From the sequence record PP925840.1: 64,000 nucleotides of DNA. The stretch is one strand, 5' to 3'. Position numbers and translations under genes: made by a program. Positions 58,335-59,661 of the stretch are shown here, in pieces. The notes below the pieces were generated by a model that was given only the letters and a program-made list of their open reading frames with translations, ran no database searches and was not told the DNA's origin. Numbering within the stretch: position 1 is the stretch's first letter; each line of letters opens with the position of its first letter. This DNA comes from Escherichia phage SholemSchwarzbard.

Positions 58335-58785
58335 AATCCACCACTATTAAATCAATATCAGGAGTAAACATGTCGATTAATTTAGAAACCTTATCCCAAT
58401 CGCCGCCAGCAATACCACAACCTATGCGTGGAATGTAAATTACCGGTTTAAACAAAAGGGTTTCTGCCTGTAGATTTAATTCTATCATGCAGTTTACTAA
58501 AGCACCATAATCAAGATTAGGACCTGGTTCGTATTGCGTATACAAGTTATAACATATGCCAAAACCATTAGGTTTATGTTTAAAAACAATAGACATATCG
58601 CCTAATTTATCACGAGAACCGTACTCAGTAGTGGTTTTATCTATTTCTAAAATTTTGGGATAGGCTCTTGCTAATTGACCCGCTACACCTGAACCCATAG
58701 TATGAAAACAATTGCACCCGTGCGCAATAATATTACCTTGAAGAAATAGGGCGACAATATCGCCCTTGATATATTTTACAATCAT
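58306..58785 (-). CDS. macro-domain protein (putative ADP-ribose binding / ADP-ribosyl hydrolase), 159 aa
   Basis: IKGDIV...GNIIAHGCNCFHTMGSGVAGQLARAYP and RIGCGIAGG resemble the two nucleotide-binding loops of macro domains. Confidence 0.6.
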   Translation of the reverse strand: MIVKYIKGDIVALFLQGNIIAHGCNCFHTMGSGVAGQLARAYPKILEIDKTTTEYGSRDKLGDMSIVFKHKPNGFGICYNLYTQYEPGPNLDYGALVNCMIELNLQAETLLFKPVIYIPRIGCGIAGGDWDKVSKLIDMFTPDIDLIVVDYESALPTSV

Positions 58786-59123
58786 CTAGTACTCAATCCT
58801 CGATTATAAGAATCTACCAAACGGTCAACCATTGAATGACAAGCGGCTTTATCTTTTTCCTCCGCAACTGAACATTCTAAGGTATTCCACTTTTTAGCAT
58901 ATCGTTTTAACAATGTATCATTTTTGTATCTGCTTGATTTATCTCTTTCTCCGTCTTTATATGCATATATTAATTTCTGTGCAAATTCAGCTTGGCATGC
59001 TTTATTTTTCCCGCAATAATCCGCTGCAGTACGGTTTACATACTCTCTAATTTCAGTATATGATGTATCTGCTAACGCAGAAAATGAAATTAATCCTATA
59101 CATAAAACCAAAATTTTAGTCAT
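58782..59123 (-). CDS. secreted Cys-containing protein, 113 aa
   Basis: signal peptide MTKILVLCIGLISFSALA; four Cys. Confidence 0.65.
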   Translation of the reverse strand: MTKILVLCIGLISFSALADTSYTEIREYVNRTAADYCGKNKACQAEFAQKLIYAYKDGERDKSSRYKNDTLLKRYAKKWNTLECSVAEEKDKAACHSMVDRLVDSYNRGLSTR

Positions 59124-59661
59124 TTACTATTTCCAAAAGTTTATTATTTTTAAGGTAATTAGCCTTTTCTAGGACTTCAGAAGCATATTTAGAACCTGCT
59201 TTAACATTCCATCCCGAATTATAAGAGGATATTGCTTTTCTTATATCGCCCTTATGTATATTTAACCAATAAGAAAGTTCAATGTACGCCCAGGAAGCTG
59301 AATTGGACCGTTTATTCAACATTCTTTTTATTTCAGCATCGGTCATATTATAACCAAGTTCCTTAACTCTTGCTCGCATAGTAGGCAAATAATTTTGGAA
59401 CATTCCGTAGGCGTGATGCTTTGGTTTAGATTTTAAATTAACTCCGCCAGAGCTTTCTTGCCATAAAATAGCAGCCATTATATGACCTAATCCGCTCTTG
59501 TGGATATTTTTGTGTGTTTTATATTTTCCATCCTTAGAAAATTGTTCCCCGAATTGATACGCGTAACGCATGTTATCGAGTTGGACATTACTGAAAGTAT
59601 GCTCGGAGCTATGTGCCATCATTGAAATGGCCAATAGACCAGCGAGTAGTGCTTTTCTCAT
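59116..59661 (-). CDS. secreted lytic-transglycosylase-like protein (SLT domain), 181 aa
   Basis: signal peptide; WQESSGG and YNSG motifs typical of family 1 lytic transglycosylases. Confidence 0.6.
   Translation of the reverse strand: MRKALLAGLLAISMMAHSSEHTFSNVQLDNMRYAYQFGEQFSKDGKYKTHKNIHKSGLGHIMAAILWQESSGGVNLKSKPKHHAYGMFQNYLPTMRARVKELGYNMTDAEIKRMLNKRSNSASWAYIELSYWLNIHKGDIRKAISSYNSGWNVKAGSKYASEVLEKANYLKNNKLLEIVND

Follow-up and report, generated by a model that had tools for sequence, protein, structure and literature searches.

We have analysed a pair of overlapping genes, vs.1 and vs, in a stretch of 64,000 nucleotides (nt) of Escherichia phage SholemSchwarzbard (PP925840.1), the whole of which is referred to here as the window. 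The original prediction for this DNA described a secreted transglycosylase-like protein of 181 amino acids (aa) and a secreted Cys-rich neighbour of 113 aa at 58782-59661, and both open reading frames (ORFs) are present at exactly these positions, on the minus strand. They lie in the gene order regB-vs.1-vs-tk.4, a conserved early block of phage T4, and the window DNA is 99.6% identical to that of a Tequatrovirus whose annotation of the block reads regB, hypothetical, vs. The features of the locus are as follows.

60158..60186, minus strand: early-type sigma-70 promoter-like site upstream of regB, TTTACT-17-TATAAT, TG-extended
59669..60130, minus strand: regB endoribonuclease gene (Pfam REGB_T4, E=5.9e-69, and annotation in a near-identical phage)
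59116..59661, minus strand: vs.1, encoding a 181-aa precursor, predicted to be a periplasmic lytic transglycosylase of GH23/SLT type
59608..59661, minus strand: vs.1 codons 1-18, predicted Sec signal peptide MRKALLAGLLAISMMAHS (sequence inspection), predicted cleavage after AHS
59455..59457, minus strand: GAA codon of Glu69 of vs.1, the predicted catalytic acid in W-Q-E-S-S
59116..59123, minus strand: vs.1/vs overlap of 8 nt, ATGACTAA, with the vs start codon within the last vs.1 codons
58782..59123, minus strand: vs, 113-aa precursor, annotated valyl-tRNA synthetase modifier
59070..59123, minus strand: vs codons 1-18, predicted Sec signal peptide MTKILVLCIGLISFSALA, predicted cleavage after ALA
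58306..58785, minus strand: tk.4 macro-domain gene (Pfam Macro, E=6.1e-8), its start overlapping the vs stop

The vs.1 start lies 7 nt beyond the end of regB, the vs stop and tk.4 start overlap by 4 nt (ATGA), and nearly all genes in the early block abut or overlap. The 8-nt overlap between vs.1 and vs is an arrangement typical of translational coupling, as judged from the sequence, and the Shine-Dalgarno of vs is weak (GGAA). The sole promoter-type motif upstream of the pair is the early-like TTTACT-17-TATAAT before regB, which is the likely source of a regB-vs.1-vs-tk.4 transcript; neither a MotA box nor a late promoter motif (TATAAATA) was found within 57500-61500, in agreement with the early expression first proposed for these genes.

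By sequence identity the 181-aa ORF is T4 gene vs.1, its product being 100% identical to ORF 61.4 of the 1986 T4 sequence X04567 and bearing the UniProt name 'Uncharacterized 20.7 kDa protein in vs-regB intergenic region'. Both Vs.1 and Vs are also identical to the corresponding proteins of phage RB68. Similarity of vs.1 to SLT enzymes is already published (2003/2006) and now propagated in annotation, Nolan et al. 2006 having given the match in six T4-like phages with citation of the 2003 T4 genome paper. In our analysis, Vs.1 matches Pfam SLT (PF01464) over residues 61-154 with E=1.4e-5 and 25.1 bits, a match beyond chance since the score lies above the curated cut-off (gathering threshold) of 21.3 bits. 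The motifs WQESSGG and YNSG, from which a lytic transglycosylase had originally been suggested, are residues 67-73 and 147-150, respectively.

Conservation of the putative active site was followed to increasing evolutionary distance. In an alignment of 28 Vs.1 orthologues with identity down to 40%, E69, G86-x-F88-Q89-N90 and Y147-N148-x-G150 are invariant (28/28), the T4-type motif forms G86-M-F-Q89 and S146-Y-N-S-G150 being invariant or nearly so. An exhaustive profile search for the family returned 421 cluster representatives at E <=1e-3, nearly all of 150-215 aa. Among 133 aligned members of this wider family, E69 is kept in every sequence (133/133), Y147 in 132 and G150 in 131, the residue following E69 is an invariant Ser/Thr across ~130 diverged sequences, and motif II position 89 is Q in 72/133 and H in 45/133. 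E69 is likewise invariant in the 59 sequences of a broader family profile, 39 of which match Pfam SLT as well (best 1.6e-10). Thus the catalytic glutamate, on whose conservation the original prediction had been made to depend, is retained throughout.

Comparison of the 59-sequence profile with the PDB gave EtgA as the best match (E 3.5e-7), and E69 is aligned with the E-S glutamates of EtgA, cod g-type lysozyme and Ralstonia GH23 chitinase, which we take to be the catalytic residues of these enzymes. The 28-sequence profile detected a weak g-type lysozyme match only, PDB sequence searches with either a single Vs.1 or a single Vs sequence produced only chance matches, and neither protein gave a match when scanned against NCBIfam and PADLOC. 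The AlphaFold2 model of Vs.1 (predicted local distance difference test score, pLDDT, 88.7) places E69 at the end of helix 59-70 and has a predicted lysozyme-like, mainly alpha-helical fold which superposes on solved GH23 enzymes. It also contains a family-specific N-terminal helix with an invariant Q27.

The N-terminus of Vs.1, MRKALLAGLLAISMMAHS followed by SE, has the K/R n-region, hydrophobic core and small-x-small c-region of a Sec signal peptide, and N-termini of this character are observed in 188/204 family members by a crude hydropathy test and in 45 of the 47 vs.1 ORFs in related phage loci. Signal calls for both Vs.1 and Vs were made by inspection and a hydropathy heuristic only. The predicted mature Vs.1 is a basic protein of ~163 aa and 18.8 kDa with an isoelectric point (pI) of ~9.7. 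Combined, these data make it well supported that Vs.1 is an early-transcribed, GH23 transglycosylase-type protein carrying a predicted Sec-type signal peptide and an intact active-site signature. It agrees with a family-1 lytic transglycosylase in all sequence and fold features checked, catalysis being predicted. This single-domain SLT/GH23-like protein is distinct from endolysin e, as had been proposed, e being a separate gene at ~63.7 kb. A separate observation concerns a protein of 2679 aa in the representative library (P0098), in which 18 separate stretches match Vs.1 profile positions 126-165; from its sequence it looks like a repeat protein built from the Vs.1 C-terminal segment.

The 113-aa ORF is, again by sequence identity, T4 gene vs (ORF 60.9). 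Vs is 99% identical to T4 Vs, the main difference being a two-residue (2-codon) deletion in the signal-peptide c-region, and it matches PHROG 1256 'valyl tRNA synthetase modifier' with E=5.2e-40. The source name of the protein is 'Valyl--tRNA ligase modifier, VS_BPT4', and PF26829 is present in all Vs homologues. The original prediction had called the enzyme correctly but missed the identity of the pair as T4 vs.1 and vs, the latter annotated as acting on valyl-tRNA synthetase (ValRS).

Despite this annotation, Vs resembles an exported protein. Its first 18 residues, MTKILVLCIGLISFSALA, followed by DT, also consist of a K/R n-region, a hydrophobic core and a small-x-small c-region. The precursor contains five cysteines (C8, C37, C43, C84 and C95), and the predicted mature protein has four since C8 is located within the signal peptide; the secreted neighbour with four cysteines first described is thus upheld in its exported look and for the mature part, but not in the cysteine count of the precursor. 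Mature Vs is predicted to be 95 aa and 11.0 kDa with a pI of 8.9. The factor described by Muller and Marchin in 1977 was reportedly ~10 kDa, which mature Vs at 11.0 kDa would match. In orthologues of 46-78% identity the N-terminal segment drifts in sequence yet keeps its signal character, C37, C43, C84 and C95 are invariant, and the four cysteines are kept in the family down to ~21-30% identity. The AlphaFold2 model of Vs consists of four helices with the cysteine pairs C37/C43 and C84/C95 at two hairpin turns. Full-length N-His Vs is described in the literature as insoluble in the E. coli cytoplasm.

A search for relatives of Vs returned no solved structure and no other family resembling it. 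As candidates, known lysozyme or transglycosylase inhibitors (Ivy, PliC/MliC, PliG, Spackle and Tsi3) were set aside for lack of fold or sequence similarity, and profile comparison shows no relationship of Vs to Spackle. The gene for Spackle, the periplasmic inhibitor of the gp5 lysozyme and another small, exported, Cys-containing T4 protein, is also located in the window (18457-18750, minus strand).

Linkage of the two genes extends well beyond the T4 type. With the Vs.1 profile, 47 related phage loci were fetched from IMG/VR, and Aeromonas phage 31 was checked separately. In 47/47 of the IMG/VR loci a Vs-family ORF of 105-122 aa directly follows vs.1, separated by -8 to +3 nt, and all 47 begin with a signal-like N-terminus. 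The cysteine pattern C-x5/6-C...C-x8/10-C is present in 45/47, the two exceptions being visibly truncated or deleted, and in 5/47 a lipobox (e.g. ...FALSGC) replaces the A-x-A site. Vs proteins form two subclasses, whose homology is shown by hhalign (probability 99.1%, E 1.9e-18); the alignment matches all four cysteines. The same synteny is annotated in Kagamiyamavirus, Dhakavirus, Marfavirus, Gaprivervirus and Hadassahvirus and in the unclassified Klebsiella phage Roth80. Combined, the signal-like N-terminus, lipobox variants and four cysteines argue for export of Vs and conflict with a cytoplasmic role. ValRS binding implies a cytoplasmic location and the sequence features point the other way; a purely cytoplasmic Vs is hard to reconcile with an export signal conserved in character only, substitution by a lipobox and invariant paired cysteines.

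Variation is also observed within the family. In two of the IMG/VR loci (L026 and L044) and in phage IME340 (P0257, 85 aa), the first cysteine pair of Vs is deleted internally or the protein is prematurely truncated, which fits vs being dispensable in some phages or conditions. Where Vs is of the short form (class B), it is directly followed by a third ORF, of ~130-145 aa and again with a signal peptide (for example L009:2363-2755 and L008:2324-2749; also in L038, L043, L047, L051, L055 and L057), its mature form starting W-[ED/NS]-K/P... and often containing GYPE. Class B phages thus carry three consecutive predicted exported proteins, Vs.1, the Vs-like protein and the third ORF, before the macro-domain gene. 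In Aeromonas phage 31 (L007:2105-2796), vs.1 is followed by a 75-aa ORF and a 146-aa ORF for a putative membrane lipoprotein, then by tk.4.

Bacterial relatives of Vs.1 were also recovered. A genome-contig scan with a narrower subset of the family recovered for the most part homologues on the chromosomes of Helicobacter and Wolinella, where the gene context is of a housekeeping kind, and relatives identified by the AAIAW[KQ]ES pattern (L058-L137) are nearly all chromosomal genes of Wolinella, non-pylori Helicobacter and further Campylobacterales. At each of three loci viewed in detail (L059, L060 and L109) the relative adjoins a large tRNA-synthetase-like ORF, probably glyS, and not a secretion-system cluster. 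These Campylobacterales homologues are uninformative on the phage role of Vs.1. Charge complementarity was likewise uninformative as evidence of pairing: Vs.1 is basic throughout, and the pI of Vs ranges from 4.7 to 8.9.

Fitness data for both genes are available for T4 in the supplement of the HIDEN-SEQ preprint (10.1101/2025.11.20.689424), where counts are mean transposon-insertion read counts per TA site. There, vs.1 is non-essential, 46/52 TA sites being hit, as is vs. From the plate library to competition in liquid LB, the vs.1 count of 75.7 decreases to 22.6 or 15.0 and the vs count of 103.3 to 26.6 or 33.9, a drop of 3-5 fold, while those for tk.4, regB and vs.3 are flat. A similar dip occurs in phage Bas37 (73.8 and 23.5 versus ~325 in the flanks). 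In the comparison of LB with M9, vs is the strongest hit (log2 fold change -2.19, adjusted p 0), vs.1 changes by -0.87 (p 0.0055, adjusted 0.155) and regB, in the opposite direction, by +1.17 (p 0.049, not significant when corrected). A clean vs deletion plates poorly on M9Glc. Insertions in vs.1 and vs therefore share a fitness cost absent from the flanking genes, which suggests a real fitness contribution of the pair.

Downstream of the pair, a perfect GC-rich hairpin, AGGGCGA-CAATA-TCGCCCT at 58748-58766, lies just past the vs stop and 20-40 nt into the 5' end of tk.4, with a terminator-like score on both strands; judging from its position, it might serve as an attenuator or a structural element in the mRNA between these two genes. 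The tk.4 gene is named tk.4/adfM (AdfM) in the HIDEN-SEQ preprint (10.1101/2025.11.20.689424), where the structure of its product is likened to the DarG macrodomain and a deletion mutant was tried against DarTG2.

Both genes and the SLT assignment being already known, the new lead is a periplasmic Vs.1-Vs pair. We consider it somewhat better than an even proposition that Vs.1 is an exported transglycosylase accompanied by a co-exported, disulfide-bonded partner and that the two serve phage fitness rather than lysis. According to this proposal, export in the pre-replicative phase would bring Vs.1 into the periplasm, where it would cut murein glycan strands non-hydrolytically, in a limited, non-lytic manner. 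Vs, co-exported and disulfide-bonded, would act as its periplasmic partner, whether as regulator, inhibitor or targeting factor, and the pair would raise phage fitness, especially in poor medium, with no part in lysis. The 'valyl-tRNA synthetase modifier' function would then be a second activity of Vs, or an assignment in need of re-testing. We hold with moderate confidence that Vs is co-exported and works with Vs.1. The broader claim is more tentative and in our estimate falls short of even: that Vs is an exported, disulfide-stapled periplasmic protein, lipid-anchored in some phages, which forms a two-gene module with Vs.1 across Straboviridae, the ValRS link being secondary, an artefact of compartment mixing in lysates or due to a mis-assigned ORF. 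With respect to the original prediction, what it observed is confirmed and its interpretation is partly supported; nothing in this analysis speaks for the suggested roles in superinfection exclusion, DNA entry or lysis timing.

Several points weigh against the periplasmic pair. The vs product has been described as binding the host cytoplasmic ValRS in classical biochemical and genetic work (Muller and Marchin 1975/1977, as cited in PMC8076793), and export of Vs.1 and Vs rests on sequence heuristics. The Vs model has a pLDDT of 79, is derived from a six-sequence alignment and is without an informative structural neighbour. Vs.1-like enzymes occur without a Vs-like neighbour in Aeromonas phage 31, Kuttervirus Det7 and Helicobacter chromosomes, indicating that an enzyme of the Vs.1 type does not need Vs. 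In their mature form the two T4-type proteins are both basic (pI 9.7 and 8.9), which is unusual for a tight enzyme-inhibitor pair. With respect to fitness, the effect of vs.1 in M9 is not significant after correction, the minimal-medium phenotype of the vs deletion fits a translation-related role at least as well, and the phenotype of vs.1 insertions could partly reflect polarity or lost translational coupling onto vs.

These points lead to the main rival explanation, which is viable although we consider it clearly less probable than the periplasmic pair: the annotation is right and the pairing incidental, Vs.1 being an independent exported transglycosylase and Vs a cytoplasmic ValRS binder. 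The hydrophobic N-terminus of Vs would then be nonfunctional as an export signal, or would export part of the pool, and adjacency would follow from the packed T4 early operon, in which genes nearly all overlap or abut. The ValRS function cited for Vs in PMC8076793 and carried in the source names, a deletion phenotype specific to minimal medium and suited to an aminoacylation role, and the basic character of mature T4 Vs (pI 8.9) are all consistent with this explanation. It leaves unaccounted for a signal-like N-terminus retained in every one of the 47 Vs orthologues despite sequence drift, a lipobox in five of them that is sensible only for an exported protein, and four cysteines invariant down to ~21-30% identity; moreover, the positive n-region of Vs predicts a periplasm-facing C-terminal domain. 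The insertion data bear on both sides. The weaker M9 phenotype of vs.1 (-0.87 vs -2.19) is as expected for partial polarity on vs. However, in the T4 LB runs the depletion of vs.1 equals or exceeds that of vs (22.6 vs 26.6; 15.0 vs 33.9), and pure polarity is insufficient to explain this as it cannot exceed the effect of vs itself. In addition, insertions in regB, which lies upstream, are not depleted, and the HIDEN-SEQ authors argue against widespread polar effects (10.1101/2025.11.20.689424).

It is improbable, in our view, that Vs.1 is an accessory or second endolysin which aids the e lysozyme and is restrained by Vs until lysis. The model for such a role is Tgl of staphylococcal kayviruses (PMC7150955), a secreted protein transcribed under an early-type promoter, for which joint action with the main endolysin has been proposed, and among the weak PHROG profile matches of Vs.1 are families of endolysins and lytic tail proteins. 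In T4, however, e is essential, with 4/45 TA sites hit while vs.1 is intact (10.1101/2025.11.20.689424), which indicates that Vs.1 is unable to lyse cells alone and provides no back-up endolysin. Furthermore, vs.1 is itself non-essential (46/52 sites hit) and lies outside any lysis cassette with only an early-type promoter upstream, so that Vs.1 falls outside the class of phage endolysins as defined by late expression or a lysis cassette and by support of lysis. Least probable is a catalytically dead or non-enzymatic murein binder, a decoy or scaffold keeping the lysozyme fold: the activity of Vs.1 is predicted from sequence, its Pfam SLT score is modestly above threshold and motif II is not strictly kept across the wider family (Q 72/133, H 45/133), but the general-acid Glu with its following Ser/Thr is invariant across ~130 diverged sequences and Y-N-x-G almost so, the usual signature of retained catalysis.

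The interest of the locus lies in the clash between the cytoplasmic role annotated for Vs and the export hallmarks of its sequence, together with its strict coupling to vs.1. On experimental work with vs.1 or a re-evaluation of Vs, the literature yields only Nolan 2006, the HIDEN-SEQ preprint and a T4 expression survey. The outcome on Vs export bears directly on the unexplained modification of ValRS: if true, the broader claim of a two-gene module would recast the question of why T4 modifies this enzyme, which dates from the 1960s, and would define a new phage-encoded regulator of murein cleavage.

Comparison with known systems places the pair as follows. With respect to T4 itself there is no difference of substance, the order regB-vs.1-vs-tk.4 matching and the window representing a close T4 relative. 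The catalytic domains of the housekeeping family-1 enzymes Slt70, MltC, MltE, MltF and MltD have in common with Vs.1 the fold, the E-S, G-x-x-Q and Y-N-x-G motifs and the predicted periplasmic location. In contrast to these enzymes, Vs.1 is without a superhelical, LysM or lipoprotein module, is phage-encoded and early, and is only 13-19% identical.

The closest resemblance of Vs.1, in both sequence and size, is to small exported transglycosylases of the specialised kind, among them EtgA of the enteropathogenic E. coli type III secretion system, which are similar in length (~150-180 aa) and consist of a signal peptide and a single GH23 domain. IagB, IpgF, VirB1 and P19 are also small, specialised, Sec-exported lytic transglycosylases of secretion systems. 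Vs.1 differs from the EtgA type in its family-specific N-terminal helix with Q27. The neighbours of vs.1 are regB, vs, the macro-domain gene and small ORFs, genes for a trans-envelope machine being absent there, and it is for want of such an association that we do not file Vs.1 with the EtgA/IagB/VirB1 type. EtgA is controlled by a partner protein, EscI, an arrangement resembling the one proposed for Vs.1 and Vs, although Vs is unrelated to EscI.

Among phage proteins, the kayvirus Tgl is secreted, contains transglycosylase motifs and is transcribable by the host RNA polymerase like an early gene (PMC7150955). It is like Vs.1, by description only, in being phage-encoded and transglycosylase-like, with a signal peptide, and in standing apart from the main late endolysin. 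It is unlike Vs.1 in having a Gram-positive host and in its proposed membership of the lytic module; in T4, by contrast, the presence of vs.1 does not make e dispensable. Finally, Tse3-Tsi3 of the type VI secretion system, PliC/MliC and T4 Spackle-gp5 each combine a murein-cleaving enzyme with an adjacent small exported protein, the same logic as that of Vs.1-Vs; their fold is not common to Vs, and inhibition of Vs.1 by Vs is hypothetical. The PliC/MliC family switches between soluble and lipoprotein forms, and this switch is paralleled by the lipobox variants of Vs.

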